From: Candidatus Heimdallarchaeum aukensis
GTDB taxonomy: Archaea; Asgardarchaeota; Heimdallarchaeia; Heimdallarchaeales; Heimdallarchaeaceae
Assembly (NCBI GenBank): GCA_021513695.1
Contig: CP084166.1
Coordinates: 1,952,001-2,016,000 of the forward strand
Reading direction: 5' to 3'
Length of the DNA stretch: 64,000 nt
Shown: in pieces, positions 38,537 to 60,617 of the stretch
Layout of the letters: every line of letters starts with the position of its first letter
Position numbering within the stretch: the first letter of the stretch is position 1
The notes under the pieces: model-generated
The model's input: only the letters and a program-made list of their open reading frames with translations
What the model was told of the DNA's origin: nothing
The model's database searches: none
Position numbers and translations under genes: made by a program

Positions 38537-38622
38537 TGGCTCAGCACTCAAGATCCTCATCACTAATCAGTCAAGGGCTAGACACATCATAGCCACATTA
38601 AATAGTTTATGAGAGTATTTTT

Positions 38623-43524: not shown

Positions 43525-45426
43525 ATGCTTATGGCACTAGAAAAATGGCTCAGTAAGAAAGATATTAAAAAACTTGAAGCTTTGAACAACCCGAAGGTTA
43601 TACAAGTGGTTGAAGAATTTTTCTCATTGTGTAAACCTGAAAAGGGAGTAGTTATTGACGATTCTGATGAAGATATTAATTATGTAAGAAAACTAGCATT
43701 AGAGCTTGGTGAAGAAAAACCTTTGGATTTAGATGGACATACAATTCATTTTGATTCTTATTATGATCAAGCTAGAGATAAAGCCAATACTCGTTTACTT
43801 GTTCCTGCTGAGAAAAAGGATGAATATGGAAAGCACATTAATACTATAGATCGAAATGAAGGGTTAAAAGAGATACTGTCTATAATGGATGGATGTATGA
43901 AAGGGAAACTTGCTATTATTCGCTTTTTCTGTCTTGGACCAACAAATTCTGATTTTTCAATTTCAGCTTTACAAATTACTGATTCAGCTTATGTAGCTCA
44001 TTCCGAGGATATTCTTTATAGAAAGGGATATGAACAATTTAAAAGATTAAAAGACCCTAATGATTTCTTCTATTTTATTCATTCAGCTGGACCTTTAACA
44101 GACAAGAACGTCACCAAAAATATTGATAAAAGACGTATTTACATTGATCTAGAAGAAAATAGAGTTTTATCAGTAAACAATCAATATGCAGGTAATAGTT
44201 TGGGACTCAAAAAACTCGCGCTTCGTTTAGCAATAAATAAAGCTATCAATGAGGGTTGGTTAACCGAACACATGTTTATTTCTGCAGTAATACCACCAAA
44301 AAAGAATAGAAAAACCTACTTCTTAGGTGCATTTCCAAGTGCTTGTGGGAAAACAAGCACTGCTATGATTCCTGGTAATTCTATAGTTGGCGATGATATC
44401 GCCTACTTAAGGATTAACAAAGAGGGAGAAGTAAGAGCTGTTAATATTGAGAGCGGAATTTTCGGAATTATTCGAGATGTAAATCCTAAGGATGATCCAG
44501 AAATATATAAAGCTTTGACCACTCCAGGAGAAACAATTTTCTCTAATGTGCTAGTAAAAGATGGAAAACCCTATTGGCTAGGAATGGGAGATGATATTGA
44601 AATTCCAAAAACTGGGACAAATTGGACTACTTCTCTTCTTGGGGACTGGGAAGAAGGAAAGAAAGATGAAGAAGGAAATGAATTGAAATTCTCTCACCCT
44701 AATGCTCGGTATACAATTAGAATTGAAGATCTAGAAAATTGTGATGAAGCTTTAAATGACCCTGAAGGAGTGAAAGTCTCTGCTATTATTTATGGTGGAA
44801 GAGATAGCGATACTTCGGTTCCTGTATACGAATCTTTTGATTGGAATCATGGGGTTTTCGTAGGTGCTTCTGTAGAATCAGAGACTACTGCTGCAACACT
44901 TGGAAAAGCAGGAGTAAGAAAGCATCAACCGATGGCTAACCTAGATTTTATAGTGGTACCATTAGGTAAATACCTTAAAGCCCATTATGAGTTTGGTAAA
45001 AAGGTCAAAGAAGATAAACGCCCAAAAATCTTTTCAACCAATTACTTCCTAAAAGATGAAAATAACAAATATTATGATGAAATCCTAGATAAAAAGATAT
45101 GGTTGCTTTGGGCTGAAAGTAGAGTACATAACGAATGTGAAGCTATTGAAACACCAATAGGTTATATTCCAAAATATGAGGATCTTGCAAAATTATTCAA
45201 AGATGTATTCAATATTGATTACTCAAAAGAAAGGTACGAAGCAGAGTTTTCAATCAGAGTTGATAAATTCTTGGAGAAACTTGATAGAATAGAAGCAATA
45301 TTTAAAGAAGAGAAAATGATGCCTGAGGAGTTCTTTATTGAACTTAATAATCAACGAAAACGACTTTTAGAAGCAAAAGAAAAATACAAAACTGGTATCA
45401 TATCTCCTTTTTCTTTTCTTAACTAA
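43525..45426 (+). CDS. pckG: phosphoenolpyruvate carboxykinase (GTP)
   Basis: Kinase-1a motif FPSACGKTS(T)AM with GTP-PEPCK conservation along the length. 633 aa. Confidence 0.9.
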   Translation: MLMALEKWLSKKDIKKLEALNNPKVIQVVEEFFSLCKPEKGVVIDDSDEDINYVRKLALELGEEKPLDLDGHTIHFDSYYDQARDKANTRLLVPAEKKDEYGKHINTIDRNEGLKEILSIMDGCMKGKLAIIRFFCLGPTNSDFSISALQITDSAYVAHSEDILYRKGYEQFKRLKDPNDFFYFIHSAGPLTDKNVTKNIDKRRIYIDLEENRVLSVNNQYAGNSLGLKKLALRLAINKAINEGWLTEHMFISAVIPPKKNRKTYFLGAFPSACGKTSTAMIPGNSIVGDDIAYLRINKEGEVRAVNIESGIFGIIRDVNPKDDPEIYKALTTPGETIFSNVLVKDGKPYWLGMGDDIEIPKTGTNWTTSLLGDWEEGKKDEEGNELKFSHPNARYTIRIEDLENCDEALNDPEGVKVSAIIYGGRDSDTSVPVYESFDWNHGVFVGASVESETTAATLGKAGVRKHQPMANLDFIVVPLGKYLKAHYEFGKKVKEDKRPKIFSTNYFLKDENNKYYDEILDKKIWLLWAESRVHNECEAIETPIGYIPKYEDLAKLFKDVFNIDYSKERYEAEFSIRVDKFLEKLDRIEAIFKEEKMMPEEFFIELNNQRKRLLEAKEKYKTGIISPFSFLN

Positions 45427-45555
45427 TTTTTTCTTTCTTTTCGTGTTTTATCATTTTAATTATAGCCGTTAAGCAGGCCTTTTTTCGTATTTTAAGAATC
45501 AGTAAAAATTGGGTAAATCAAAGATTTTTTATTGTAAATTAATTCTTATTGATTA

Positions 45556-46098
45556 ATGAAAACTTTATGGGAAAAAATAGAAACTGGACCTAATCCTCCA
45601 GAAGAGGTATTTGTCATTATAGAAAATCCAAAAAATAATAAAAATAAATACGAATTTAGAAAAGAAGGTTACCTAGTGCTTGATCGTGTTCTTCATTCAT
45701 CTGTACATTTTCCAGGAGACTATGGATTAATTCCTAGAACATATTATGAAGATGGAGATGCTTTGGATATTTTAGTTTTGATTACAGAACCTACTTTCCC
45801 AGGGTGTGTTCTTCCAGCTAGACCTATAGGTGTTCTGAAGATGCGTGATGAAAAAGGGAGAGATGATAAAATACTAGCAGTAGCAAGTGGAGACCCGTTA
45901 TATCATGATGTTTACACACTAAAAGATATCTATCCTCATACCTTAGCTGAAATTGCAGAATTTTTTAGGACCTACAAAGGTCTAGAATATGGAAAAAATA
46001 CAGAAGTTATAGGCTGGGGTTCAAAAGAAGAAGCTTTTGAAACTATAACTAATTCTATGAGACTTTATAATAAATTATTTGCTAATCAAGATCAATAG
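45556..46098 (+). CDS. ppa: inorganic pyrophosphatase (family I)
   Basis: HFPGDYGLIP and DGDALDILV motifs. 180 aa. Confidence 0.9.
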   Translation: MKTLWEKIETGPNPPEEVFVIIENPKNNKNKYEFRKEGYLVLDRVLHSSVHFPGDYGLIPRTYYEDGDALDILVLITEPTFPGCVLPARPIGVLKMRDEKGRDDKILAVASGDPLYHDVYTLKDIYPHTLAEIAEFFRTYKGLEYGKNTEVIGWGSKEEAFETITNSMRLYNKLFANQDQ

Positions 46099-46154
46099 AT
46101 TAATAGAAATAAGTCAGAATAAATATTGTAGTTCAGCTATAGAGGAAAATATCC

Positions 46155-46568
46155 TTATTTTTCTACAGGGATATTTCCTGAAGGTAGTAATTCGCTTAAA
46201 AGATATTTACTCTTTTCTCCTTTATCATTTACAACAATTATTTTAATATCCTTTTTATTGAGTTGAGAAAATTCGAAAAGCTTTTGCCTACATGAGCCAC
46301 AAGGAAGGACAGGAGGAGAACAATAAGAATAAATTAAAATTGAATCAAAATTTTTTTCTCCATTTTTTACAGCAGCTCCAATCGCATTTAACTCTGCATG
46401 TAAAGCAATATAGTCAGAAAATTCAACATTACAACCAGTATATATTTTTCCTGAAGCTGTAAGTAAAGCTGCTCCAACACGAAAATTACTATAAGGAGCA
46501 TATGCCTGCAATGAAACTTCTTTTGCCTTAATAACTAGTTTTTGGATATTTTTTTCTGTATCGTGCAT
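46155..46568 (-). CDS. cdd: cytidine deaminase
   Basis: Zn ligands HAELNA and PCGSCRQ. Confidence 0.75.
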   Translation of the reverse strand: MHDTEKNIQKLVIKAKEVSLQAYAPYSNFRVGAALLTASGKIYTGCNVEFSDYIALHAELNAIGAAVKNGEKNFDSILIYSYCSPPVLPCGSCRQKLFEFSQLNKKDIKIIVVNDKGEKSKYLLSELLPSGNIPVEK

Positions 46569-46631
46569 AAGGATATTTATAAAAGAGAATTAATAAATTT
46601 TCTACTGTATTATTGCAAATTTTAATGCTAA

Positions 46632-47183
46632 CTAAAAAATCTCTTCTGTATCGTCATCTAATGCATCTAAATTTAAAGTAATAACGTTTTGAGTTTCAAT
46701 TACAAGATTTTTTTCTTTTAAAAGAGGAACAACGCGATTTTTCAAAGTGACAACAGGTATTTTAGTTTTCTTACTGAGTTTATCATAATTGGAAGAATAA
46801 TTATCTAATGAAGCTAAAGCAAGAAGAACAGAAATATTCTCTTTTTGACTTGGAATCCAAGTAGTAATGACTTTTAGAGTGAATTTCAAACCAGACAGAA
46901 GCATAGTCTTTTTCTTAAATTCTTCTTCTAATTTTTCATATTTGTTTTTGAAATATTCTAATTGTTGAACTTCATTAATCAATTTTTTATTATCGTTTTT
47001 TAGCTCTTTATTCTCATCAGCTATTTTCTTTGCTTCTTTTTTTAAGTTGTCATATTCAAGGTCAAGCTCGTTTATTTCACTTAGTTGTTTTTTTAATGAA
47101 TCAATCTCATCTTCCAGTCGACTATGTTCATAGGTGACTAAATTATCAATTTGCTTTAATAGTTCTCTAACTTTGTCTATCAT
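46632..47183 (-). CDS. coiled-coil protein, possibly with a C-terminal wHTH
   Basis: Heptad-rich central region. Its start directly abuts the stop of the TGT gene. Confidence 0.4.
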   Translation of the reverse strand: MIDKVRELLKQIDNLVTYEHSRLEDEIDSLKKQLSEINELDLEYDNLKKEAKKIADENKELKNDNKKLINEVQQLEYFKNKYEKLEEEFKKKTMLLSGLKFTLKVITTWIPSQKENISVLLALASLDNYSSNYDKLSKKTKIPVVTLKNRVVPLLKEKNLVIETQNVITLNLDALDDDTEEIF

Positions 47184-48776
47184 TTAATCTTCCTCACTTT
47201 TTTCTTTAGAAGTATAGACGTTTAGTTCAACTTTATCTAACATTTGTAATTTATCTTGAAGCTTATCCCTAATTGAATTGAGTTTTTCTTTTCTTTCTGC
47301 AGGAAGAATGATGATCTCACTATATCCTTTTTTCATTATATAATTAATCGTAACCTCTATGGCTTTTTCTAGGATGATAGAGTCAATGACATTAGAAAAA
47401 ACAAATTGCGAGAAGGGGTAAGTTTCATGAAGTTCAAAAGGAAAGACACCGAAAAAGGGTAAAAAGAGAGATACATCGGCAGAAGATAAATGGTTAATTA
47501 GTTTATCTTTTAGCTCTGGATTAAGATTAAAAAGTTCAATAGGTGTTTTTTCTCCTGAAAGTAAGTAAATGTAAAGGCTTTCACTATTTTTCTGATAGTT
47601 TTTTAGAATACGTTCTCTGATAATTTTGAATTCAGGTCGATCAAAAGAAAGATGATTATAGATTTTTAAGCCTCCACTTTTTGTGATAGGGGTTCCGATA
47701 TCAAAAAAACCTTTTTTACTAAGATCTGTCAAAACATGAAAAGCTTGGTAAAGATTGGGATGGCTGAGAGCTCGTTGTTCAAGTAATTCCCATAAATTAC
47801 CATTACGAATTGCTTCACGAATTAACTTGATTTCGGTAGATGAAATATGTAAATTGTGAGCTGCAAGAGCACGAATACGTTCATTATGTGGGCTCTCTCT
47901 TAATTCTTGAGGAGTATATTTTGAACAAACCTCGCAATCACAAGGAAACTCTTGGATGTTATCAAGAATAAGTGTACCTGTAGAAGTCATGTAACGGTTG
48001 TCTTTAGCAAAGAGGATATAGGCTGCACTATCAAAAGTATCACCTCCCAAAGCAACAATAAAAGGAAAAATCATAGGATGACCAGCACCGAAAATGTGCA
48101 ATGGAATGTGATAAGGAAGGTTACTTCGTGCATGATGAATCATAGAGAAAAGAGTAGTGTAATCATATGAAGCCATAATAGGAACAACACTACCTAGGGC
48201 ATAAAAACTGAAATAATCGAGATAATTCTTTTCCTTAACTTTTTGAATATAATTATCAATAAGAGAGACATTCTTTCCTCCTTGGATTGGGAGTGTCCAT
48301 AAAGTTTTGTCATGCGTTTTTACATGATCTAAAGACAATTCTATACGTTCAATTGTTTGTTCCATTTTGTTTTTGGCTTCATCAAAACTATCAGAAGGGG
48401 GAGTGGGAACGTCAAGTATAACACCAATATCAGTTTGAACTAATGATTGAAGTTCTAAAGATTGAAGAGGGGAAATAGAGACGTCTCCATAAGCAAGAAT
48501 TTGATATGCTCCACTATCCATCATAACAATGCCATCGAAGTCCAAAGTCTGATGAATCGGAGGGGAATGAACGTTGGGCATACCGTATCGTTTCAAATAC
48601 AAATAAGAGCTAGTAATAAGAAAATTAAAGCCAAATGTGTGTTTCATTTCATGAGGTGTGATGATATTATCCCTGGGATCAACGACAGGAACAAGTGTAG
48701 GAGTTAAAATTTTCTTATTGTTAACTTCAAAAAAAGTTATTCTGGAGTGAAGATCAGAGGAAAGAATCTCAAGCAT
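47184..48776 (-). CDS. tgtA: archaeosine tRNA-guanine transglycosylase (ArcTGT)
   Basis: TGT catalytic core and the Zn site CDCEVC...H. The ORF track extends the N-terminus to 48914 with an implausible hydrophobic leader. The internal Met (MLEILSSDLHSRITFFEV...) fits TGT N-termini better. Confidence 0.8.
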   Translation of the reverse strand: MLEILSSDLHSRITFFEVNNKKILTPTLVPVVDPRDNIITPHEMKHTFGFNFLITSSYLYLKRYGMPNVHSPPIHQTLDFDGIVMMDSGAYQILAYGDVSISPLQSLELQSLVQTDIGVILDVPTPPSDSFDEAKNKMEQTIERIELSLDHVKTHDKTLWTLPIQGGKNVSLIDNYIQKVKEKNYLDYFSFYALGSVVPIMASYDYTTLFSMIHHARSNLPYHIPLHIFGAGHPMIFPFIVALGGDTFDSAAYILFAKDNRYMTSTGTLILDNIQEFPCDCEVCSKYTPQELRESPHNERIRALAAHNLHISSTEIKLIREAIRNGNLWELLEQRALSHPNLYQAFHVLTDLSKKGFFDIGTPITKSGGLKIYNHLSFDRPEFKIIRERILKNYQKNSESLYIYLLSGEKTPIELFNLNPELKDKLINHLSSADVSLFLPFFGVFPFELHETYPFSQFVFSNVIDSIILEKAIEVTINYIMKKGYSEIIILPAERKEKLNSIRDKLQDKLQMLDKVELNVYTSKEKSEED

Positions 48777-49387
48777 AAAGAAAAGAACGAATAATTGTAT
48801 AAAAGAATAACCATAAGCAACAGAGAAGCAAAATCGCGACCAAAAATGTATAAGTAAGTTGATTTGTGAAGGTACAAAATTGATCATTTTTGTGGTTTCG
48901 AGTGGGTCAAGCACAATTGAGAAGTTTCTGAAGGAAAAACAAGAGCATATTTTCTATTGTTAATGGTTACATTAATTATCTTGATTAGTTTAGTTTTTCT
49001 AGTAATGTAAGGTGAAGGTCTAACGTTGCTCTATTCATTTAAAACGCTCTAACATCTCTGATTTAATAAAGAATCTTTGATTCTTGATAAATTCAAAGAT
49101 TTCGAGCAGTTTTCACTTGACAAAGCTTAACTAGGTCAGAACGAAATTCGTAATGGATGTTTAACATCTAAAATCATCCAACTTGAAATGTATTCGATTG
49201 ACCTTAAATGCCATAAAATAGTAATATTAGAACATTTTAGTATAAAAAAAGCATCACAAAACCCGCTCCAAGAGTACATATTCGCATTAAATAAAAGAAA
49301 CAGGGCATACGTTTAAATTTTTGCTGAAAAATCGAAGATTCAATTTTATCAAGCGAAAAATAGAGTGGTTAGAAAAAAGTAGAAAAA

Positions 49388-49864
49388 TCATTTTTTGTTT
49401 CTTCTCCCAAAAAATTGAATTACAAAAGTAGTTAGGAAAGCAAGAATAACTGAACACAAATCAATAACTATAAGTATGATAGTCTCTATTTGAGCATTCG
49501 TGCGCAACAAATTACCTTCAAATATAAGGAAAATTATTAAACCTAAAAGAAGATAACATAGACCAACACTGACAAATATCAAGGTGTGTTTCATGTTCAG
49601 ATATCCTTTCCACAATAGCAGAATAACTATCGTTGCAGTCAAAAGCGAAAATGCAATTAAAGATGGCCAAAAGATCCAAGAATTATATTTGAAGAAATCT
49701 TCAACGGAATCATATGCTTCTTCAAGGCTAGCAAATAGAATAAATAAGAGTAATAATGAGCAAAAACTTGTGGCAAAAAATATAACAAACCATCTAAAAT
49801 GTTGAATGATAGTGTGTTGTTTGCTGAAGTTCTGTTTTGCTTTATTAAAGTATTTCGTATCCAT
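49388..49864 (-). CDS. hypothetical membrane protein (4 TM)
   Basis: Hydrophobic ORF. Confidence 0.4.
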   Translation of the reverse strand: MDTKYFNKAKQNFSKQHTIIQHFRWFVIFFATSFCSLLLLFILFASLEEAYDSVEDFFKYNSWIFWPSLIAFSLLTATIVILLLWKGYLNMKHTLIFVSVGLCYLLLGLIIFLIFEGNLLRTNAQIETIILIVIDLCSVILAFLTTFVIQFFGRRNKK

Positions 49865-50767
49865 TTTTTACCTCCAGAAATCCTAAATACACTATAGTAT
49901 ATGGTCGGTAGCCATGGATTATCAACTATTTCTCTACATAAATGGATGCACAATTAAATGTATTATGTTTTACTTTTTTCATTAAAAGAGAGTAGGACTA
50001 TTTATTAAAATTTTGTCTATTCTGCATATCTAGGAACTTAAATTTGTTAATTATTTTGAATTGAGTAGAAGAAACCTGCTTTATGGTTAATCTGTCATTA
50101 AATCTAAGTAGCTCTATTGTTGACAATTTGACGAACTGTGGAAGGAGAGAGGCACATTTAGAGAACGTATTAAAAGCGTCCCGTTTCCTCCACTTCCTCC
50201 AGATGAACCTTGAGTCATTGTAAAGGTAAACGTTTGGCGTAAAAGATGGTCGTAATCCAAAAAACTGCCAGTAAGTTCATCAACTTCTGAAGTAAACCAA
50301 TGTGAATTTGAATAAGTTCGCACGCTCAATGCAGTTAATCCATCCCAATATGAAGTAACATAGTGTTCCTGCTCAAAGTTTATGTTATCATCTAGATGAT
50401 TAACATGAAGTTCCCATTCAGGGTCATCCCCATTATCTGGACAGTCATTGGTACTGTATTCATAATCCACAAAAGTATCAAGTATATCCGTTATATAGGT
50501 GCCAGCATATGTGAAATAATGGAGCTCTGAATCAGAAAGTATTCGTTTTTCTATTTCATGAAAATATGAACTCTCTTTCTATCGGAAATAAAACTGAATC
50601 AATAATCAATAAGTTTTTATTAACGACAAAAAAAGTAGTTATTGTGGAAAAAATCCACAGAAAACTGTTGTGAAATGCCTTAACCGGCAAGAAAAGCAAG
50701 AACTGCTTTATTATTGAAAAAACATTCTCTTAACAACTCACAAAAATAGAAAATGTGAGTGAACGAT

Positions 50768-50780
50768 AATTATATAAAGG
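50768..50780 (+). promoter_or_regulatory. candidate TATA box of the 23S rRNA promoter
   Basis: TTATATAAAGG lies about 90 nt upstream of the rRNA processing stem. Confidence 0.3.
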
Positions 50781-50866
50781 GAAGAAAGTCAAGAAAAAAC
50801 ACTAAAAAATCATGAAAAACATGATGATTATCAACTCCAAGAACTGGTAAGTTAAGTAAAAAACCA

Positions 50867-50889
50867 GTCAGCTGACAAGAACTCTCCAA
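50867..50889 (+). other. 5' half of the 23S rRNA processing stem
   Basis: GTCAGCTGACAAGAACTCTCCAA is perfectly complementary to 54366..54388. Confidence 0.7.
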
Positions 50890-50917
50890 ATAGGCGAAAA
50901 CTGATATCTAAAGTAAT

Positions 50918-53900
50918 CGAACTATGCCTACGCCATGCTGTGGATGACTTGGCTGGGGAACCGATGAAGGTCGTGGTAAGCCGCGAAAGGCCTCGGGGAG
51001 ACGCAAACAGTCTACGATCCGAGGGTCACCGAATGGGGATCCCGACACAGCCTAATAAGTTGTGTCAACCAGTAATGGTGGGGAACGTGGGGAACCGAAA
51101 CATCCAAGTACCCACAGGAAAAGAAAACAATTGTGATTCCGTGAGTAACGGCGAGTGAAAGCGGAACAGGTCAAACCGAATTCCCTTTTCGAAAGATTAG
51201 GGTAGATGTGGTGTTTGTGACTGCAATATGGACCGTCAGCGTGAAGTCGAAGACAATGTGGAACATTGCGCCATAGAGGGTAAAAGCCCCGTAGACGTAA
51301 GCGCTCGGCCTAGCAGGATCAAGACTAGCGTGGCTTGGATTTGTCGCGCAAATATGGGAAAACTATGTCCCAAACCTAAATATTCCCCCAGACCGATAGC
51401 GCACTAGTAGCGTGAGCAAAAGTTGAAAAGTATCCAAAATATGGGAGTGAAAAGACCCTGAAACAGCATGGTAACAGACGTGGATGGCTCGAAAGCGTAG
51501 ATTCTCAGCGAAGGAACTCACCGTGAGGTGTTAGTACGAGCTGAGAGGAGCGGGGTCATCCGTTCCGTCTAGAAACACGGGCCGAGGAGTTCAGATTCGT
51601 GGCGAGCCTAAACGTATGTGGTGGCGTAGCGAAAGCGACCTGCACGCAGCACTTATGTGCCAGGTGCGACGTACGATAAGTGCGTGAAGTCACGGGTCTG
51701 AGACACGAAAGGAGTCGATCTACCCCTGGTTAAGGTGAAGCGCTTCGAAAGGAGCGTGGAGGCCTGAAGGGTTTCTAATATGCAATTTGTTCCTCTGAAC
51801 TGGGGGTAGTGGCAAAAGACCAATCTAGACTCCTGATAGCTTGTTCCCGCCGAAGTATAACCACAGTATAGCGTCACCGGAGGTTGCATGTGAGGTAGAG
51901 CTACGGACGGGTTGTCCCGGGGAGTGAAATCCTCGCCAATCCTTCCAACTCCGAACTTGCATGCGCCGTAGATGGTGGCAGACGGGCGTGTATCCGCAAG
52001 GGATATGGCCGCGAGGGGTTCAACCCAGAGGTTGGTTAAGGGCCCTAAATCCTGGTTAAATGTTAAACTGAATGACGTCCAACGGCTTAGACAATGAGGC
52101 GGTAAGCTTAGAAGCAGCTATCCGTTAAAAAAAGCGTAACAGCTTACTCATCGAGCTGTTGGGCTCAGAAAATGGACGGGGCTAAACCAGGTCCCGATAC
52201 CAATCCGAACTTCAAAAGAGTTTTGGGTAGGCGGGCGATCAGGTTGGGCTGAAGCTGGGGGGTGACTCCCAGTGGACCGGCTTGATTTGCAGATCTCGGC
52301 GGTAGTAGGAGCATAGTGAGGTGAGAATCCTCATCGCCGAAAGCCCAAGGGTTCCTTGGCACTGTTCGTCAGCCAAGGGTTAGTCGGTCCTAAGGGTGAT
52401 CTTAACACGAATCACTCGAAAGGGAAACAGGTTCATATTCCTGTACCGCGCATATAGGTGTGGTGACACAAGCTTTGAGCAGACACTGGTGGGTAGGTGG
52501 CCTAGGAGCGTATCCTAGTTAAATCCCGAATTCTGGGGAGAACCGTTATGGTGAGAACCAGAAGAATGGATGAATAGGCTGGCCATCGGTTGCTGGCTGC
52601 CATCAATCCCAACAGTCCATGAAAATGCGAGAAGAACGATTATGCGCGACCGTACCCAGAACCGTGACAGGTGTGGCTAGCTGAGAAGGCTAAGGCGTGT
52701 TAGGAGAAATCAGGTGAAGGAAATCGGCAAATTAGCCCCGTATCTTGGGTATAAGGGGTGCCTGGAAAGGTGTATGCCTTCCCAGGTCGCAGTGACAAGG
52801 GGCACCCGACTGTTTAATAAAAACATAGCAAACTGCAAGGGTGAAAACCTGTGTACAGTTTGTGAATCCTGGCCGGTGCTGGTGATTGAAACCTGGGTAC
52901 AACCAGGCTAAGACCCAGTAAACGCCGGAGCTAACTATGAGCTTCTTAAGGTAGGCAAATGCCTTGTCTGCTAATTACAGACGTCCATGAAGGGACCAAC
53001 GAGGTGCCCACTGTCTCCACCTGAATCCTACTGAACCCACAGTCCAGCGAACAGTCTGGAATGCACCATCGGGAAGAGAAGACCCTGTAGAGCTTTACTG
53101 CTGTCAGAGGCTGTTGTACTGGTGCTCATACATAGAATAGTCAGGAGGCGTCGATCCTACATTCTCCGGGATGTAGGGGAGCCGACAGTGAAATACTGAC
53201 TTTGAGCATTGGTACGACTCACCTCTTGCGAGGGGGACACCCTCTGCCTGGCAGTTTCACTGGGGCGGTAGCCTCTTGAAAAGATATCAAGAGGGCCCAA
53301 AGCCAAGCTCAACCGGGACAGAAATCCGGTGTAGAGTGCAAGGGCAAAAGCTTGGTTGACTGTGAACTGATAGAGAAGGTTCGCAGATGTTAACGCAGGG
53401 CCTAGCGATCCTTCGCATTGCCCATAGTAGGCGGCGGAGGTGGCGGAAAAGTTACCTCAGGGGTAACTACACTTTGATGTTACACTATCAAAGTGGCTAG
53501 ACAAAAAGGAACTTTTCCTGCATTGCACTTTATCTTTTCAAGGGCACGAAAAAATGAAACAAAAAAATAAAGCTAAGGTGGGTCAAATTTTACCCGAATG
53601 AATAATATACCGCAAAAAAAAGTTATCGAGTGAGGATTACTTACAAGTTTTCGCCTAATGGTCAAAAGGAAAACTTGAGCGGATTAGAACGGATCCAACA
53701 TCTGCCTTAACCATCAAGAAAAAAGACCCTTGGAAAAGATGAAGAGCCATTTTGAAAGTGTGAGGTCAAGAGGTTATTAGATCGGTAACTTGCCTTAAGC
53801 CGAGGCTGACAACTAATCTAATAACCGAAGTCGAAAAGACTGGTGTAGCCCTGAACAGAGTTGTCGTGGGTAAGAGTTCACATCGACCTCACGGCTTGCT

Positions 53901-54340
53901 ACCTCGATGTCGGCTCTTCCTAGCTTGGAGGTGATTCAGCTTCCAAGAGTGGGGTTGTTCGCCCATTAAAAGGGAACGTGAGCTGGGTTTAGACCGTTGT
54001 GAGACAGGTTGGATTCTATCTGATGGTGCTGGCGGGAGATTGAGAGTAAAACCTCCACAGTACGAGAGGAACAGGCGGTTGGGGCCTCTGGTGTATCGGT
54101 TGTCCTCCCGGGCATTGCCGAGTAGCTAAGCCCTTGAAGATAAGAGCGGAAAGCATCTATGCTCGAAGCTTCTCTCGAAACGAGTCTCCCATTCTGTACC
54201 TTTTGGGGGCTGGTGACAGCAACCTTTGGTATAGACGAGAGCACGGAAAGAAGATCCGGTTGATAGAGCAGGGGTGTGCGCGTCGAGCTTCGGCGAGATG
54301 TTTAGCCCACTGCTACTAATCGCTCAAGCGTAGTTCGACC
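50918..54340 (+). rRNA. 23S (large-subunit) rRNA, interrupted by a ~389-nt insertion
   Basis: Conserved 23S blocks recognised by eye: 5' GGATGACTTGGCTGGGGAACCGATGAAGG, GACTGTTTAATAAAAACATAGC, GGGGTAAC...AGAGTTCACATCGAC...CTCGATGTCGGCTCTTCC. The 5' and 3' ends pair (GAACTATGC / GCGTAGTTC). GC is about 50%, against about 30% for the genome. Confidence 0.9.
53468..53856 (+). other. putative 23S rRNA intron (non-coding, AT-rich)
   Basis: The conserved domain V sequence GGGGTAAC|AGAGTTGTCGTGGGTAAGAGTTCACATCGAC is split by about 389 nt of AT-rich sequence. The boundaries are ambiguous by 2-3 nt. Confidence 0.6.
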
Positions 54341-54365
54341 AAATAGGTATCAGTTCGTCAGATAC

Positions 54366-54388
54366 TTGGAGAGTTCTTGTCAGCTGAC
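54366..54388 (+). other. 3' half of the 23S rRNA processing stem
   Basis: TTGGAGAGTTCTTGTCAGCTGAC is the reverse complement of 50867..50889. Confidence 0.7.
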
Positions 54389-54591
54389 TTTTTTTTTGTC
54401 TTTTTTTCTTATTTTCCTTTTTCCTTGAACTTTTACTTCATTTGTATCTTTTTTTTGAAAATTTTCTTCTTTCTGTGCGAGATTTCTTTATTCTTTTTTC
54501 CTTTCTCTTCTCTTTTTTTGTAATACCTTGATATTTTGACAATGATATTTGTATTTCTATGTTATTTTTTATTAATACTCCTTGAGCAACT

Positions 54592-55773
54592 ATGAGTGAT
54601 AATAGTAATCTTAATCCTATTCACCTTAACAATGATGTTTCTCAGGGCGATTCTTCTTCTCTTAGTTGTCCTGTAAGTCCTGATGTCGGTACTTCTGATG
54701 AAGAATTATTGTCTCTTCTTCAGACTAGTTCTTCTCGTACTTCTAAATATGATACTAATAACGCTAATGCTGAGATTATTGAATATGTTCGAGATGATCG
54801 TATTTTAGCTATTGGTGTTGGTGGAGCTGGTAGTAACGCCATTAATAATATCATTGAGCGTGGTGGTATTGGTGGGGCTACTACAATTGCTATTAATACT
54901 GATGCTCGTCATCTTTTAAATACAAAGGCTGAGAAAAAGCTCCTTATTGGCAAGGAATTAACTCGCGGTACTGGTGCAGGTAATGATCCTAATATTGGTC
55001 ATGCTGCTGCGGTTGAGAACGAGGAAGAGATACGTGAACTTGTTCGTGGAACTGATTTAGTTTTTATTGCTTGTGGACTTGGAAAAGGTACAGGTACTGG
55101 TGCTGCTCCCTATATTGCGAAGATAGCTCAAGAAGAAGGTTGTTTGGTTATTAGTGTTTGTACTCTTCCTTTTGCTTCTGAAGGAGAAAGTAAGATGCGT
55201 ACTGCTTTACGTGGTTTACAAGAGTTGAACCGCCACTCTAATACTATTATTATTGTTCCTAATGAGAAGTTAGTATTGGAAGCTGCTGATTTTTCAGTAT
55301 TAGACGCTTTTGAGATGGCTGATGAAGTTTTGATTAATGCTGTTGTTGGTTTAACCGATGTTATCGTTGAAACTGCTAAGATTAATGTTGATCTTGCTGA
55401 CACTAAGAAAATTTTGCGTAATAGTGGCCCTGCTGTTATTAGTATCGGTAAAGGAAAAGGAGAGAATCGTGCTCTTGACGCAGTTAACGCAGTATTAACC
55501 AATAGTATGTTAGAGGCTGATATTTCTAAGTCTACTGGTGCTCTTGTTAATATAAAAGCTAATAAGAAGATTACCACAATGGAGCTTGAAGCTATTACCA
55601 ATGAAATAACTTCTCGTATCGCCCCTGATGCTTTATTCATTTGGGGTCTGAGTATTGATGATACTATGGCTGATGATGAATTGTTTGTTACTGTTGTCAT
55701 CGCTGAAGTTGATTCTCCTTATCTTGAACTTGATGAAGACGAAACCACTATTGAGGACTTATGGTATAACTAG
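54592..55773 (+). CDS. ftsZ: cell division GTPase FtsZ
   Basis: IGVGGAGSNAIN and GTGTGAAP (the tubulin signature), plus a low-complexity N-terminal extension. Confidence 0.9.
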   Translation: MSDNSNLNPIHLNNDVSQGDSSSLSCPVSPDVGTSDEELLSLLQTSSSRTSKYDTNNANAEIIEYVRDDRILAIGVGGAGSNAINNIIERGGIGGATTIAINTDARHLLNTKAEKKLLIGKELTRGTGAGNDPNIGHAAAVENEEEIRELVRGTDLVFIACGLGKGTGTGAAPYIAKIAQEEGCLVISVCTLPFASEGESKMRTALRGLQELNRHSNTIIIVPNEKLVLEAADFSVLDAFEMADEVLINAVVGLTDVIVETAKINVDLADTKKILRNSGPAVISIGKGKGENRALDAVNAVLTNSMLEADISKSTGALVNIKANKKITTMELEAITNEITSRIAPDALFIWGLSIDDTMADDELFVTVVIAEVDSPYLELDEDETTIEDLWYN

Positions 55774-55953
55774 CTACATCATTTACTTTTTTTGTTTTTT
55801 CAATTTTAGTTAGTTATTTTGTTTACTTGACTTTGTTTGTTTTGAAGGTGGAATATTAAATTTAACTTGTTGTCCAAGAGCACTTTTTTTAAAGTCGATA
55901 ATCTAAGAAATTTGTGGTCTTTTTATCTTTCTAATTATTATATTAATTGAAAA

Positions 55954-56787
55954 ATGAAGAAATTTGACATTGTAGCCACTGATAACTTTATATTACTTCA
56001 ATCAGGAAAAACATTTGTTGGTATTGTTGGTTATGCAATTATCTGTATAGATTGTTCCTTTGAAGAACAAAATAAAGCAGTAAAAGATCTTGTCAAACTT
56101 ATTATTGAGCTAAATCTTTCCTTTACTTTCCATTTTGAAGAAAAAGCAGTAAAGATCTTTTTCTTAATTAGTAGTAGTAAAACGACAGATATCTTAAACT
56201 CTGTTGTTAAATTAGAATCAAGGATAAGTCTTCTGTCAAACACTAGTCAATTATTCCTCTCTCCTCTTAATCATAAGGAATTATCTCATAAGATTTCAAG
56301 GTTCTATTTTCGCTCTGTAAATAAGACCATTTGTGAAAAAACTTTTCACTTAGGCGATTCCTTATTTACTTTTTTCACATTTATTCCCATTTCTAACAAA
56401 AATGAGACGATAACTCCTATCATACAACGTTTAGTTAAACAATATAAGTGTAAAGTTGTTCTCAGTAATAGATTAGAAAAAGTAAAAAATTCAGATTGTA
56501 ACTATCTTCAGGGCATCATTATCTCAAAGGAGTTAGGAAACGAAAAGGAAAAAGATATTTTCTTTAATCAGTTTAATGAACTTCTGGACATTCACGATCC
56601 TGATTGTACTATATTGGTTCGATTTTTTTCAGCAAAAGAAATTGAACAAAATAAAATTTTCTTTGCTTTGGGTTATCCCACAATCGAAAGTCATTTTGAC
56701 AACGATATGCTTTGTAAAATGGTTCAGAACAGTTTATCTAACACTATTAAAAAGAGGGTTGGTTTTTCTACTCTACCAAATAGTTAA
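55954..56787 (+). CDS. hypothetical protein
   Basis: ORF upstream of rpp21 on the same strand. Confidence 0.4.
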   Translation: MKKFDIVATDNFILLQSGKTFVGIVGYAIICIDCSFEEQNKAVKDLVKLIIELNLSFTFHFEEKAVKIFFLISSSKTTDILNSVVKLESRISLLSNTSQLFLSPLNHKELSHKISRFYFRSVNKTICEKTFHLGDSLFTFFTFIPISNKNETITPIIQRLVKQYKCKVVLSNRLEKVKNSDCNYLQGIIISKELGNEKEKDIFFNQFNELLDIHDPDCTILVRFFSAKEIEQNKIFFALGYPTIESHFDNDMLCKMVQNSLSNTIKKRVGFSTLPNS

Positions 56788-56812
56788 AAAAATTGTTAAG
56801 ATTTTGTTTTTA

Positions 56813-57184
56813 ATGAGTAACTGGGAAAAAAAGTATCCTTACTTTCGAAAAAGACCTAAACCAAAACAAATGAGAAAAAAAATATTACAAGAGGTTGCTA
56901 TAGAGCAAATTAACAATTTACTCACTAAAGCTGACAATTTGATTAAAACTGATTTTAAGCTCGCACAAAGGTATGTTGAACAAGCTAGAAAGATTCAAAT
57001 GCGAACCCGTGTTAGTCTTCCCAGTTATTGGAAAAAAAGAATTTGCCGCCATTGTAAAATACTCTTAAAACCAGGAGTAAACTGTAAAGTTCGTTTGTCA
57101 ACCACTAATCGAGTTGTATCTATTAAGTGTAATATTTGTGGTCAATACAACAGGTTCCCATATTATAAACACAAAAAAAGGTAA
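56813..57184 (+). CDS. RNase P protein subunit Rpp21/Rpr2
   Basis: LAQRYVEQARKI...CRHCKILLKPGVNCKVRL...CNICG. The ORF-track frame 56576..57184 extends upstream through a hydrophobic stretch I judge non-coding. I chose Met80 of that frame. Confidence 0.65.
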   Translation: MSNWEKKYPYFRKRPKPKQMRKKILQEVAIEQINNLLTKADNLIKTDFKLAQRYVEQARKIQMRTRVSLPSYWKKRICRHCKILLKPGVNCKVRLSTTNRVVSIKCNICGQYNRFPYYKHKKR

Positions 57185-57191
57185 ATGTACA

Positions 57192-57437
57192 ATGAAGGAA
57201 TTACTATCTCGTGTTAAACAAGAACCAGCAAAACTTAGAATAGGAAAAAAAGGTGTTACAGAAGCTATTATTGACGAAGTTGAGAATCTTTTAAAAAGAG
57301 ATTCAGCAGTTAAAATCAAGTGTTTAAAGATTATTCCAAATGAATCTATTGAACCTATTGCAAAAAATATTGCTAAATTAACTCATAGTAAATTGGTCGA
57401 AATTAGAGGGAAAACATTCATTCTCTTGAAAATTTAA
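57192..57437 (+). CDS. YhbY/CRM-domain RNA-binding protein
   Basis: LRIGKKGVTEAIIDEVENLLKRDSAVKIKCL matches the YhbY pattern. The ORF-track start at 57114 is probably too far upstream. Confidence 0.6.
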   Translation: MKELLSRVKQEPAKLRIGKKGVTEAIIDEVENLLKRDSAVKIKCLKIIPNESIEPIAKNIAKLTHSKLVEIRGKTFILLKI

Positions 57438-57447
57438 ACTTATTTTT

Positions 57448-58125
57448 TTAAAGAGAACTTAGAAGCAATTCAAAAATTCTCATGCTTTCAGGACCTGTTG
57501 TATCTTCTCCTACAAAAGCTCCAGTAGAATTTGCTATTATTCCTATTTTTGGATAAGGAACTCCTCTATTTACTGTTGTCAAGTCTACTTTAACTTTCAA
57601 CAGAGAAGCAAGTTCTCTTTTTTCTTCTTCTGTTGTTAGTGGGTGAACTAAACATCCTCTATTTGTTGCTAATCCTGTTGTTCCCACTAAGGGAGAAAAT
57701 ATGATATTACCTACTATAGTTTCAATTCCAAGAGCGTCTTCAATTTGTTTCTGAGCTTTTTTCTCGAATATTTCACTTATTACTGCCCCTTTATCGTTTA
57801 AAAGTATGAGATTTCCTAGAGCGGTATATTTACTTTTGATTTCTACAATCTCAACATCAAGTTCCTCTAGTTGAGAAAAGTTATTGTATTCTGTTTCTGT
57901 CATATTTGGTGGAATTAGAAGCGTTTTCGAGTTACCAGCCAACATTGTTCCAAGTAAAACAGTGTTAGCAACAGAATTTTGAATTATTTTACACTCTAGT
58001 GTTTCTTCAATTAGTTCTTTTGTTGTTTCTTTGATCCCAAAAGGAACTATAGCATACTTATCTGTTGCAAATCCGAATATTCCTATCCCTGAATTGCCTA
58101 AAATAGTTCCTTTTGAAATTTCCAA
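57448..58125 (-). CDS. eif6: translation initiation factor 6 (aIF6)
   Basis: KSKYTALGNLILLNDKGAVIS, ATNRGCLVHP and IANSTGAFVGEDTTGPE are characteristic of e/aIF6. Confidence 0.85.
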   Translation of the reverse strand: MEISKGTILGNSGIGIFGFATDKYAIVPFGIKETTKELIEETLECKIIQNSVANTVLLGTMLAGNSKTLLIPPNMTETEYNNFSQLEELDVEIVEIKSKYTALGNLILLNDKGAVISEIFEKKAQKQIEDALGIETIVGNIIFSPLVGTTGLATNRGCLVHPLTTEEEKRELASLLKVKVDLTTVNRGVPYPKIGIIANSTGAFVGEDTTGPESMRIFELLLSSL

Positions 58126-58162
58126 TTTAATCCCCTTGTTTTTTAAAAAAAAGATAAAAGTT

Positions 58163-58573
58163 TTAGGAAGAGGGTTCTTCTTCTGAAGTTTCTTCTTCTG
58201 GATTATCTTCTTCCTCTTCTTCTTCCTCCTCTTCCTCTAATTCTGTTGGGACTGTAATTCCTTCTAATTCTGGGCGAGCTTCAACTTCTACTTTTTCTGT
58301 TACTAGTTTTACTGTTGCAACTTTAAGTTCTTCTTCTATTTCAACTAAAGTGCGAACTTTAACTCTTCTAGGTGGTTTTTCGATTCCTCTTTCCCAGATA
58401 TATTCATTTAATTTATTATCAATCACAACAATATCTGCTTTTGTATGTTTAAGTATATACTCTTTTAACAATCTTATAGCTCTTGGAGCTCTTTTATATC
58501 TTGGAGTTTTATTTAATTTTGGGAAGAAAGGAACAGTATAAATTATTTCAAGAGGTTCTTGTGACATTTTCAT
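58163..58573 (-). CDS. rpl31e: ribosomal protein L31e
   Basis: The L31e core with an acidic C-terminal tail. Confidence 0.8.
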   Translation of the reverse strand: MKMSQEPLEIIYTVPFFPKLNKTPRYKRAPRAIRLLKEYILKHTKADIVVIDNKLNEYIWERGIEKPPRRVKVRTLVEIEEELKVATVKLVTEKVEVEARPELEGITVPTELEEEEEEEEEEDNPEEETSEEEPSS

Positions 58574-58580
58574 TCAACTC

Positions 58581-58736
58581 CTATTTTTTAACCCTTACTT
58601 GTCTCCAGCTTCTTCTTTTTGGGTGAGTTCTTACTCTACGATTAGTTCGTACAACAATCCAGCTCGGAACTGAACTGTTTGTCTTCATACTTTTTGCATA
58701 TCGCAGTTTTCTGGATAATACTTTATTTCTCGCCAT
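58581..58736 (-). CDS. rpl39e: ribosomal protein L39e (51 aa, absent from the ORF track)
   Basis: Hand translation gives MARNKVLSRKLRYAKSMKTNSSVPSWIVVRTNRRVRTHPKRRSWRQVRVKK. The start overlaps the upstream gene's stop (TAATG). Confidence 0.8.
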   Translation of the reverse strand: MARNKVLSRKLRYAKSMKTNSSVPSWIVVRTNRRVRTHPKRRSWRQVRVKK

Positions 58737-59086
58737 TATATTCGCCTTATATCAATTTTTGTTTCTCTTTTTTGTCCTTGTAGTTTTTTTAAGAGCTCTT
58801 TAAGTTGAGCATCATTGATTTCGCTCCTGAGAGCACCTTGTTGGGCAAGTTGAATCAGTTGTAGTTCAACAGATTCAGCTAATTGTGGTCTTACTAATTT
58901 TACATTTGCTAACCTTTGTCTAGCATCTTCAGTGAGAATTTGACGTAGGATAGCTTGTTTTTGAGCTTCAATATTTGCTTCTTGTTCCTTTTGCATCTGT
59001 CGTACTGCTTCATTTTGTTGTAATTGAGCTAGTTTTCGACGTCGAATTTCTTCTAATTCTTCATCATAACCCAACTTTCTCACCAA
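58736..59086 (-). CDS. PDCD5-like dsDNA-binding protein
   Basis: A basic/Gln-rich 116-aa protein with ILRQILTEDARQRLANVKLVRP. It sits at the conserved position between S19e and L39e. Confidence 0.65.
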   Translation of the reverse strand: MVRKLGYDEELEEIRRRKLAQLQQNEAVRQMQKEQEANIEAQKQAILRQILTEDARQRLANVKLVRPQLAESVELQLIQLAQQGALRSEINDAQLKELLKKLQGQKRETKIDIRRI

Positions 59087-59111
59087 CTTACTAGGACAAA
59101 CTTTCTATTGC

Positions 59112-59576
59112 TTAATATCTCTCTAAAGCAGGAATTTCTCGCTTTATTTCAGCCGAAATTCGATCAACAAAGGATTGCCCTTCTGGGCTAATTACTCGTC
59201 CATAGATAGCCTTTCCTTTTTTAAGATGATCAGTTTTCTTTTGAATATAATTTGCTTTTTCTAATTGCTGAATAATCTTTCTGATAATAGAGCCACTTCC
59301 TTTTGCGAAATGTTCTCTTCTTACACCTCTACGATGTTTCCCACCATAAATTACACGGAGTCTTGAAACACCTATTGGTCCTTTTAAGTATATCTTTCTG
59401 AGGATAGAAGCTGCTCTAATGTACCACCAATCTTTTTGAACAGGAATATTTTCTTTATGAACACCTGTCTTAGAATATAGTGCCCATTCTGGTGGTTGAA
59501 TATTGGGGTTATTCTTTAATTCTTCAGCAATTCGTAATATCAATTTATCTGCAGGAACATCATACGCGCTTGGCAT
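59112..59576 (-). CDS. rps19e: ribosomal protein S19e
   Basis: The S19e pattern PEWALYSKTGVHKE...WYIRAASILRKIY...GGKHRRG. Confidence 0.85.
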   Translation of the reverse strand: MPSAYDVPADKLILRIAEELKNNPNIQPPEWALYSKTGVHKENIPVQKDWWYIRAASILRKIYLKGPIGVSRLRVIYGGKHRRGVRREHFAKGSGSIIRKIIQQLEKANYIQKKTDHLKKGKAIYGRVISPEGQSFVDRISAEIKREIPALERY

Positions 59577-59802
59577 TTATTATTTCACTCATTACATTTT
59601 TTTTGCGAGAAAGCTTAACTTTGCTTTTTCCGATTTTTCTGTTTGTAAGTTGTTTTAAAAATATTGCTTTGATAGCTAGAATTATTTCGTTTTTTGGAAA
59701 AAAATTTAGTCTAAATATTAAATTATAGTAGATATTTTATGTTCTTGTTTCTATAATTCTATAAACTAATTCTGTTGTGATTTTTATTTTTATTTCAAAG
59801 GA

Positions 59803-60567
59803 TTATTCGGTTTCAAATTTTTTTACAATATAGTTTCCAATAATCTCAAAAGCTTTATCGATATTTACGCCTGTTTTTGCTGATGTTTGTAGGAAAAAGT
59901 TTTCAACTCCCTTTTCTTTTGTTTTTTTATTCAAATCATCTACAAACTTAGCTATTTCATCTTTTCTAACTTCTTGATTAGGAAGGTCACTCTTATTTCC
60001 TAAAATAATAACTGGTATTACTCCCCTACCATTATTTTGGTAAAGTTCTTCTAACCATGTAGAAAGGTTTGTAAAAGTCTCTCTTCTTGTTAAATCAAAA
60101 ATAGCTAAAGCACCAAAACATCCACGATAAAAACGACTTCTTACTCTTTTAAAGAACTCTTGGCCTGCAATGTCCCAAATTTGAAATTTGATACTATCTC
60201 CATCTATTGTTGTTTCTTTTACAGCAAAATCTGCACCTAGGGTGGCAAGATGTTCTTTTACAAATCCTTCTCCCAGATATTTTCTCCTTATCGAAGTTTT
60301 ACCCACTGCCCCATCGCCAATTAAAACAAGTTTGATCATGAAGGATTTTTTCTCCTTATCTGGCTTTTTTTCCACCATGTTCTTACGTTTATTTACTTCT
60401 TTTGTGGTCTTTGGCATATTCTCTTGAAATAGAGTTATGCCCTTTTTTGTTTCAGATTCCTTTTGTTTTTTTTCCATCTCTGATACAACCTTATTTTTAT
60501 TGAATATAAATATTACCAGTTTTTGCAATTTTTTAGCAAGTGGACAGTTGGAACTAATGTTCTTCAT
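59803..60567 (-). CDS. Rab-like small GTPase with ~75-aa N-terminal extension
   Basis: G1 GDGAVGKTS, G3 WDIAGQE, G4 GNKSD, G5 TSAK. Confidence 0.7.
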   Translation of the reverse strand: MKNISSNCPLAKKLQKLVIFIFNKNKVVSEMEKKQKESETKKGITLFQENMPKTTKEVNKRKNMVEKKPDKEKKSFMIKLVLIGDGAVGKTSIRRKYLGEGFVKEHLATLGADFAVKETTIDGDSIKFQIWDIAGQEFFKRVRSRFYRGCFGALAIFDLTRRETFTNLSTWLEELYQNNGRGVIPVIILGNKSDLPNQEVRKDEIAKFVDDLNKKTKEKGVENFFLQTSAKTGVNIDKAFEIIGNYIVKKFETE

Positions 60568-60617
60568 ATCTTTTGAAAAAAATATGAGAAAGCGAATATT
60601 TATCTTAAACTAGTAAG

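Follow-up and report, generated by a model that had tools for sequence, protein, structure and literature searches.

The window analysed here, a 64 000-nucleotide (nt) stretch of the Candidatus Heimdallarchaeum aukensis genome (contig CP084166.1, positions 1,952,001 to 2,016,000 of the forward strand), contains a complete archaeal 23S (large-subunit; LSU) ribosomal RNA (rRNA) gene whose peptidyl-transferase loop is split by an insertion of about 389 nt. We are confident that this insertion is an archaeal bulge–helix–bulge (BHB) intron, which is probably cut by the splicing endonuclease EndA and ligated by RtcB and which possibly clamps its own exons.

Insertion point and bulge–helix–bulge

The Rfam model LSU_rRNA_archaea (RF02540) matches the gene end to end on the plus strand (50916–54339; model positions 1–2987, 2489 bits). 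In a local cmscan of 53380–53960 the match breaks between model positions 2541 (window 53461), where the 5' part stops, and 2545 (window 53854), where the 3' part picks up again. The roughly 389 nt of the insertion break up GGGRUAAC|AG, a universally conserved part of the central (peptidyl-transferase) loop of domain V, where the exon text reads ...ACCUCAGGGGUAAC / ...CCCUGAACAGAGUUG. Because AAC stands at both ends of the insertion, its boundaries are ambiguous by sequence, and four pairs from 53465/53853 through 53468/53856 are equivalent. A previous sequence-only reading of this stretch had drawn them at 53468–53856, which is one of the four, but the BHB cleavage rule gives 53466–53854. The E. 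coli numbering was checked for self-consistency by counting on to Cm2498, m2A2503 and U2506; in it G53460–G53463 correspond to 2445–2448, U53464 to U2449, A53465 to A2450 and A53855 to A2451. The claim in that reading of an insertion of ∼389 nt in domain V that lacks an open reading frame (ORF) agrees both with the Rfam and cmscan matches and with the ORF scan of the intron, in which no frame with a start codon exceeds 37 amino acids and no open frame exceeds 44. Its description of the AT content as genome-like holds in part: with 38.0% GC the intron is intermediate, nearer to the remaining window (30.6%) than to the exons (52.0%). The insertion region is strongly structured, with a minimum free energy (MFE) z score of −6.1 relative to dinucleotide shuffles. 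The gene and the elements of the BHB are as follows.

50916–54339, plus strand: host gene, complete archaeal 23S (LSU) rRNA, interrupted once (RF02540 match)
53466–53854, plus strand: intron according to the BHB cleavage rule, 389 nt (from the cmscan break 2541/2545 and the BHB geometry; the sequence alone allows −1 to +2)
53460–53463, plus strand: exon-1 strand GGGG of the 4-base-pair (bp) central BHB helix, E. coli 2445–2448, pairing with 53849–53852
53849–53852, plus strand: intron strand CCCU of the central BHB helix, pairing with 53460–53463
53464–53466, plus strand: 5' bulge UAA, with the predicted cut after A53465 (A2450) by the BHB rule
53467–53473, plus strand: 5' strand CUACACU of the inner helix h', pairing with 53842–53848
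53842–53848, plus strand: 3' strand GGUGUAG of the inner helix h', pairing with 53467–53473
53853–53855, plus strand: 3' bulge GAA, with the predicted cut after A53854; A53855 is A2451

All four pairs of the central helix and all seven of the inner helix are present in the window, and the two bulges, UAA and GAA, are of 3 nt each and lie on opposite strands, each 3' of its own helix strand. Cleavage of a BHB by the splicing endonuclease takes place 3' of the second nucleotide in each bulge. Applied to these bulges, the rule predicts cuts after A53465 and A53854, so that the intron would comprise 53466–53854 and lie between A2450 and A2451. Joining 53465 to 53855 gives GGGGUA|ACAGAG (GGGGUAACAGAG), in full agreement with the LSU consensus as to both length and register. 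The intron ends pair as CUACACU/GGUGUAG plus GGGG/CCCU and not by GGCUA/UAGCC, which the sequence-only reading had put forward as a central helix between the two ends; the latter segments are complementary here, but the helix is not conserved in the family alignments. The suspicion in the same reading that the insertion is an intron, with a BHB motif as the proposed test, is borne out, the test being positive.

The site was surveyed in one genome per GTDB species and in JGI metagenomes by scanning for 23S genes whose base 4 nt upstream of ACRGAGU differs from the universal G2447, a pattern that is blind to the appearance of the insertion itself; two scans gave 34 and 32 loci. A few matches lay in bacterial records, apparently by chance, and the named hosts were otherwise all Asgard (Heimdall-, Thor-, Prometheo/Loki-, Odin-, Hermod- and Borrarchaeota), although the pattern fits lineages with ACRGAGU exons only, such that this apparent restriction says nothing on archaea as a whole. 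About 47 other 23S loci carry an insertion at the same site, with lengths of 30–811 nt, and these insertions group into several families between which no alignment is possible. Family A, the type found in the window, comprises ORF-free introns of 288–423 nt, and every named host is a member of the Heimdallarchaeota; its members are the window intron, L014 (Ca. H. endolithica PR6), L015, L022, L023, L025, L032, L033, L002, L010, L029, L053, L058 and L062. Family B has long forms (665–793 nt) that encode a LAGLIDADG_3 protein (Pfam, 4.7e-9) and ORF-free short forms (145–148 nt) whose termini are 87–97% identical to those of the long forms; by this comparison, loss of the ORF at this site is documented in a family other than that of the window. 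Family C is 144–188 nt long in L007, L024 and L048 and longer in four Thor/Prometheo loci. The remaining types are a 111–114 nt type, minis of 30–33 nt and several singletons. The intron of the window is present at the same site in the closed genome CP084167.1 (423 nt compared with 389 nt; 95.6% identity over the stretch including the intron) and in independent metagenome contigs. Identity to Ca. Heimdallarchaeum endolithica PR6 is 96% in the flanks and up to 99% in the 23S exons.

For the junctions, we aligned exon end, intron start, intron end and exon start in 27 distinct sets, of which the loci besides the window account for 24. The BHB is paired in 95.3% of the cells of this alignment, compared with 31–51% when the partners are slid by one to three columns, and the central helix is fully paired (4/4) in all but one of the 27 sets. 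All seven pairs of the inner helix show compensatory changes across intron families, and the pair 2448:Y goes from G:C to A:U in lineages with A2448. The predicted spliced product equals the consensus in every one of the 27 sets. Unrelated insertions down to 30 nt have only the BHB geometry in common, and this shared geometry, which always regenerates consensus rRNA, is strong evidence for splicing by the BHB pathway. In two mini-introns with GGGAUA exons (L036:11308–11339 and L063:554–586; 32–33 nt) the BHB is shifted by 1 nt (AGGG/CUCU), and the shifted cut, U2449|A2450, falls exactly at the classical L2449 position. Most of the Asgard 23S genes found have G at 2448 (window 53463), where E. 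coli has A (GGGGUAAC, not GGGAUAAC); this base pairs with an intron C, and the A2448 lineages (L005, L049, L036 and L063) carry an intron U.

Structure of the intron family

The family A structure was derived from a sequence-only L-INS-i/MAFFT alignment of its 14 members, in which the mean column identity is only 54% and the invariant motifs are CUUGAGCRGA, GAUGRAGAGCCA, GUGA, GGUAACU, GACAACU and CGAUGUG. The fold is rod-like, with the 5' and 3' halves of the intron pairing lengthwise and with side hairpins. It contains 67 pairs in 13 helices, 89% of which are paired compared with ∼40% when the partners are slid, a contrast that is somewhat inflated in that the structure came from the same sequences. 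Changes on both sides were found for 22 of the 67 pairs. Compensatory changes in intron helices imply selection on the RNA; some occur in helices 3–5 of the rod, others in helices 10–12 of the 3' hairpin domain and, as a GC to CG change, in helix 13, and helix 7 alternates between UUAUC/GAUGA and CCAUC/GAUGG. The covariation scan gave no extra pseudoknot helices. The elements in the window are as follows.

53474–53498, plus strand: rod 5' strands (53474–78, 53480–86 and 53488–98), pairing with 53765–69, 53757–63 and 53745–55, respectively, in the MFE fold
53470–78/53487–95, plus strand: alternative local hairpin CACUUUGAU/AUCAAAGUG, with one U:A to C:G change seen by eye in the family alignment
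53528–53544, plus strand: 5' strand of a long-range helix, CUUUAUCUUUUC AAGGG, pairing with 53727–53744
53644–53706, plus strand: region of central hairpins, conserved, including the invariant CUUGAGCRGA
53644–77, plus strand: central hairpin GUUUUCGCC...AAAACUUG, conserved in family A
53677–83/53701–06, plus strand: central hairpin GAGCGGA/UCUGCC, conserved in family A
53727–53769, plus strand: rod 3' strands, with the invariant motifs GAUGRAGAGCCA and GUGAGG
53772–53826, plus strand: 3' hairpin domain, consisting of an 11 bp lower stem, a conserved internal loop (the 'module') and an apical stem-loop
53829–53841, plus strand: small hairpin (helix 13) between the module domain and the 3' BHB strand

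The 5' hairpin CTTTGAT...ATCAAAG noticed in the sequence-only reading is present (53470–78/53487–95) and overlaps the inner BHB helix by 4 nt (53470–53473). The long-range rod also uses the 3' strand of this hairpin, and both alternatives covary in part within the family. A conformational switch that masks and exposes the BHB is conceivable. The idea that the insertion is a degenerate intron that has lost its ORF finds no direct support: tblastn with the LAGLIDADG_3 proteins of family B, which occupy this site in other Asgard lineages, gave E ≥ 0.7 in family A, such that a homing-endonuclease remnant there was rejected. With its covarying structure and invariant motifs retained, family A is not decaying. 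For Thermoproteales 16S introns, by contrast, Jay and Inskeep found that introns of one locus generally lack a conserved predicted structure (PMC4496867).

Exon-complementary internal loop

The two strands of the module internal loop are complementary to the two exons, each to a segment exactly 3 nt outside the BHB.

53784–53791, plus strand: module strand 1, GGUAACUU, complementary in 8 of 8 positions to exon 1 (53449–53456)
53449–53456, plus strand: exon-1 target AAGUUACC, E. coli 2434–2441, the 3' strand of helix 74; duplex −12.8 kcal/mol
53807–53814, plus strand: module strand 2, UGACAACU, complementary to exon 2 (53859–53866)
53859–53866, plus strand: exon-2 target AGUUGUCG, E. coli 2455–2462, the 5' strand of helix 89; duplex −10.1 kcal/mol

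Opening of the internal loop costs 3 kcal/mol, which compares with −12.8 and −10.1 kcal/mol for the two duplexes, and neither module strand has a partner of at least 7 nt inside the introns. The module and the BHB are the sole parts common to families A and C, and the module is equally distant from the 3' splice site in both. Exon and loop match in 24 of 25 loci that bear the module, with three different pairings (AAGUUACC/GGUAACUU, AAGUUACU/AGUAACUA and AACUUACC/GGUAAGUU); the exception is the ill-fitting match in L003, which lies within a family B intron with an ORF. L002, which has one mismatch, was added to the set by hand. In a pseudo-alignment of 18 distinct rows, the two clamp helices are 95.5% paired compared with 17–44% when slid. 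Two clamp positions have changed on both sides (G:C to C:G in six rows and C:G to U:A in three), and the exon-1 strand of the loop covaries with the exon across two intron families. The 6 bp core of the exon-2 helix is invariant or G–U compatible in 17 of the 18 rows; both one-sided changes in this core are G–U compatible, and in L029 the terminal pair of the core is lost. Mere mimicry of the exon junction GGUAAC by the loop is ruled out by the G:C to C:G switch.

We regard this exon clamp as a supported hypothesis and not as a finding. It could supply the missing outer helix of the BHB, hold the exons for ligation or delay the folding of helices 74 and 89. We propose more tentatively, with doubts that outweigh our expectations, that the intron carries its own exon-binding guide, made up of complements to the helix 74 and helix 89 strands on either side of the peptidyl-transferase loop, by which the exons would be aligned or sequestered through RNA–RNA pairing, much as in group I and group II introns. 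Such a guide could act in cis as a checkpoint that keeps the catalytic centre from folding before splicing, and the intron, sited one nucleotide from the classical group I position L2449 in the archaeal lineage closest to eukaryotes, could also be left over from a transition from group I to BHB splicing.

The pathway that we envisage would begin in the pre-rRNA, where the end of exon 1, GGGG (2445–2448), would pair with CCCU near the 3' end of the intron to form a 4 bp helix flanked by the UAA and GAA bulges and followed by the 7 bp intron–intron helix. The strands of the loop in the hairpin near the base of the rod would bind exon 1 (2434–2441) and exon 2 (2455–2462), and the resulting clamp may replace the missing exon–exon outer helix and, up to splicing, hold or organize the flanks of the exons or prevent the catalytic centre from folding. 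EndA, reported for Asgard archaea as an (αβ)2 enzyme whose L1 loop confers relaxed or broad recognition of BHBs (PMC5829648), would cut after the second base of each bulge, ligation of the RtcB type would join A2450 to A2451 and restore the peptidyl-transferase loop, and the intron would be released, probably as a circle.

Beyond the module, 8-mers antisense to the exons within 300 nt are enriched in the window intron and L014 (15–17 compared with ∼3 expected, z ∼6); in the window alone there are 15 compared with 2.7 expected (z 5.7), and sense 8-mers are not enriched. Many perfect complements of 8–12 nt link the intron (53510–53775) to exon segments 53221–53456 and 53885–54138 in both sequences, for example 53531–42/53275–86 (12 nt), 53510–18/53445–53, 53741–48/53912–19 and 53760–67/53885–92. 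Across the family, however, full-block conservation is confined to the two module strands, and the control with reversed exons likewise gave 17 columns; the wider complementarity appears to be lineage-specific and mostly not conserved in the family. The possibility that the intron is an extended antisense copy of its neighbouring exon was rejected, local alignment to the reverse-complemented flanks being no better than for shuffles. A second match to the loop pattern GGTAAST-N(5–35)-ACAAYT occurs in the window at 26538–26573 and is probably due to chance (five of 100 shuffles give two). In four Thor/Prometheo loci (L016, L004, L028 and L065) there is a second mini-intron of ∼32 nt, ∼10 nt upstream of the main intron; it lies between C2440 and C2441 (AAAAACUUAC|...|CCCAGGGG), inside the exon-1 segment that is complementary to the loop of the main intron.

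Alternative readings, related systems and genomic context

Several observations weigh against a BHB intron with an exon clamp. The outer exon–exon helix h is absent (A53459/C53856 and C53458/A53857 are mismatches), so that the BHB counts as relaxed. For a mini-substrate taken in isolation, the nearest-neighbour energy is lower for a register-shifted pairing, CAGGG/CCCUG (−15.1 compared with −11.9 kcal/mol), in which G53853 pairs with C53458, the 5' bulge has 4 nt and the 3' bulge disappears. The clamp helices and the BHB stem cross each other as a pseudoknot, which is beyond evaluation by folding programs, and the clamp covariation amounts to about two evolutionary events, one of which (G84A) is also compatible with an intramolecular hairpin. 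Furthermore, the minis and other families at the site have no module, and the module is therefore not required for splicing.

It is very unlikely that the insertion is instead a self-splicing group I intron at LSU 2449 or a decayed derivative of one. With exon 1 ending at U53464 and the intron at G53853, one of the possible choices of boundary, a U precedes the insertion and a G ends it; the length is typical and the structure conserved; LSU 2449 is a known group I site at which ORF-less IA1 introns of ∼375 nt occur, as in the Floydiella chloroplast rrl (PMC2997540); and group I introns are present in archaeal LSU genes (PMC6125680). However, the terminal G is not conserved (L002 ends in A, the other families in A, C or U), inspection revealed no guide near the 5' end that could form P1 with GGGGU, the sole GCCCU being at the 3' end, and the covariation scan gave no crossing helices of the P3/P7 kind. 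The intron ends pair in a BHB that is common to the 30 nt minis, and minis of 30–33 nt cannot be ribozymes. At E ≤ 10, cmscan matched neither RF00028 nor any other Rfam family in the window intron or in the GC-richer L062 beyond chance matches at the level of small nucleolar RNAs (snoRNAs) and microRNAs, by which a known RNA family was rejected; for group I introns this negative is not absolute, as the model covers IA1 introns poorly. Group II introns are marked by a 5' GUGYG, a 3' AY and a domain V and usually exceed 600 nt; the window intron starts with ACUAC, is 389 nt long and has no match to Rfam group II models, and this identity was also rejected.

Equally improbable is that the insertion is not spliced and religated, but is either retained as an expansion segment or cut out to leave a fragmented 23S rRNA. 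Asgard LSU rRNAs do carry large expansion segments (PMC7594248). The site, however, separates A2450 from A2451 within the single-stranded core of the peptidyl-transferase centre and is not the tip of a peripheral helix; insertions there vary from 30 to 811 nt among lineages with exactly identical boundaries, and some carry homing-endonuclease genes. Given this position and the precise, conserved BHB, the expansion segment that the sequence-only reading had named as the alternative is unlikely, and fragmentation is opposed by the coupling of archaeal BHB cleavage to ligation. A disrupted pseudogene or an assembly artefact is more improbable still. Further rRNA copies outside the single 64 kb window covered here would leave some room for this explanation, but apart from the insertion the gene has the score of a full-length LSU, its flanks pair in a long processing stem, CP084167.1 and independent metagenome contigs have the same intron at the same site, and the compensatory substitutions in its helices point to selection at the RNA level.

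Among other candidates, a C/D-box small RNA (sRNA) within the intron was rejected, since GAUGA is the 3' strand of a covarying helix and the CUGA at the 3' end lies in the BHB and is not conserved. An H/ACA guide was dismissed for want of an ACA box after the hairpin, and a second BHB nested in the module hairpin does not fit geometrically.

Protein-spliced rRNA introns are known mainly from Thermoproteales and Desulfurococcales; named examples include the Desulfurococcus mobilis 23S intron with I-DmoI and introns in Pyrobaculum, Aeropyrum and Thermoproteales 16S genes. The BHB intron proposed here resembles the archaeal rRNA introns of Thermoproteales, Desulfurococcales and Aigarchaeota (PMC4496867) in its location at a highly conserved rRNA site, in the 4 bp helix, two 3 nt bulges and intron stem at the junctions, in the occurrence of ORF-free variants and variants with a LAGLIDADG ORF at one site and in the expected splicing by EndA and a ligase. 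It differs from them in its Asgard (Heimdall) host, in the site A2450|A2451, in the lack of an exon–exon outer helix, in the conserved, covarying structure of 300–400 nt kept by its family and in the loop complementary to both exons. With the group I introns at LSU 2449 (IA1; Floydiella Ft.rrl.5) it has in common a similar length, an insertion point within 1 nt and intron sequences that pair with both exons, which may be analogous to the internal guide pairings P1/P10. It differs in having no group I core, P1 or conserved terminal G, in its predicted protein-catalysed splicing, in the position of the exon-binding strands in a hairpin loop near the 3' end and in the targets of these strands, which lie 9–16 nt upstream and 5–12 nt downstream of the junctions and are not junction bases. 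Precursor transfer RNA (pre-tRNA) BHB introns and the BHBs of pre-rRNA processing stems have the same recognition motif and the same predicted enzymes; their flanking helices are supplied by the tRNA body or the processing stem, whereas in the window single-stranded stretches of exon, perhaps held in place by the intron, flank the BHB. As in dual-guide C/D-box sRNAs and snoRNA chaperones of pre-rRNA, two short antisense elements reach two nearby rRNA segments; unlike these, the intron has no C/D or H/ACA boxes, would act in cis from inside the intron and implies no modification function. Another group I intron at LSU 2449 is the yeast mitochondrial ω intron with I-SceI.

Full-text searches of the library covered found no paper that describes a BHB intron at this site or in any Asgard rRNA gene. 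Penev et al. mention only the removal of 'known intronic regions' (PMC7594248), and Wu et al. do not mention the Heimdallarchaeum 23S intron. The kind of element is well known; new, as far as can be told, are its host group and site, the conserved family of structured introns without an ORF and the loop complementary to the exons. One site in the catalytic centre is occupied across Heimdall-, Thor-, Loki/Prometheo-, Odin-, Hermod- and Borrarchaeota and hosts the whole life cycle of such elements, from endonuclease-bearing and ORF-deleted forms to 30 nt minis, together with an ORF-free family that is clearly selected for RNA structure. We know of no BHB intron that organizes its own exons; if the loop is functional, this one would be the first and would offer a concrete handle on the coupling of ribosome assembly and splicing in the closest archaeal relatives of eukaryotes. 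In practical terms, the introns at this site explain 23S calls that are over-long or 'broken' in Asgard metagenome-assembled genomes and must be removed ahead of rRNA phylogeny or probe design.

Extra 23S insertions that are absent from the window were observed in other family A loci: one of ∼680 nt at the equivalent of ∼52820 in H. endolithica (L014:4986–5660) and L010 (3189–3869), one of ∼870 nt at the equivalent of ∼52730 (L029:4029–4899) and one of ∼150 nt at the equivalent of ∼54004 (GUGAGA|ACAGG) in L023 (1182–1329), L010 and L029. As judged from these loci, Asgard 23S genes are multiply interrupted, with presence and absence differing between close relatives. The processing stem of the window gene, formed by 50866–50910 and 54344–54389, contains bulges of 2 nt (50898–99) and 3 nt (54360–62) with 5 bp between them, which would make up a BHB-like site for excision and circularization of the pre-23S rRNA. 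The conserved intron motif GUUUUCGCC (53647–55) is complementary to GGCGAAAAC (50893–50901) at the bulge of this stem.

No 16S or 5S rRNA gene was found in the 64 kb window, which extends 51 kb upstream and 9.6 kb downstream of the 23S gene. Other Rfam matches in the window are a tRNA-Thr(GGU) at 18294–18367 on the minus strand and, just over threshold, a C/D-box sRNA at 38538–38594, also on the minus strand. By eye, the genes in 43525–63392 appear to include those for GTP-dependent phosphoenolpyruvate carboxykinase, pyrophosphatase, cytidine deaminase, an archaeosine tRNA-guanine transglycosylase, FtsZ, eIF6, L31e, S19e and a small Ras/Rab-like GTPase (59803–60567), a set that fits an Asgard genome.

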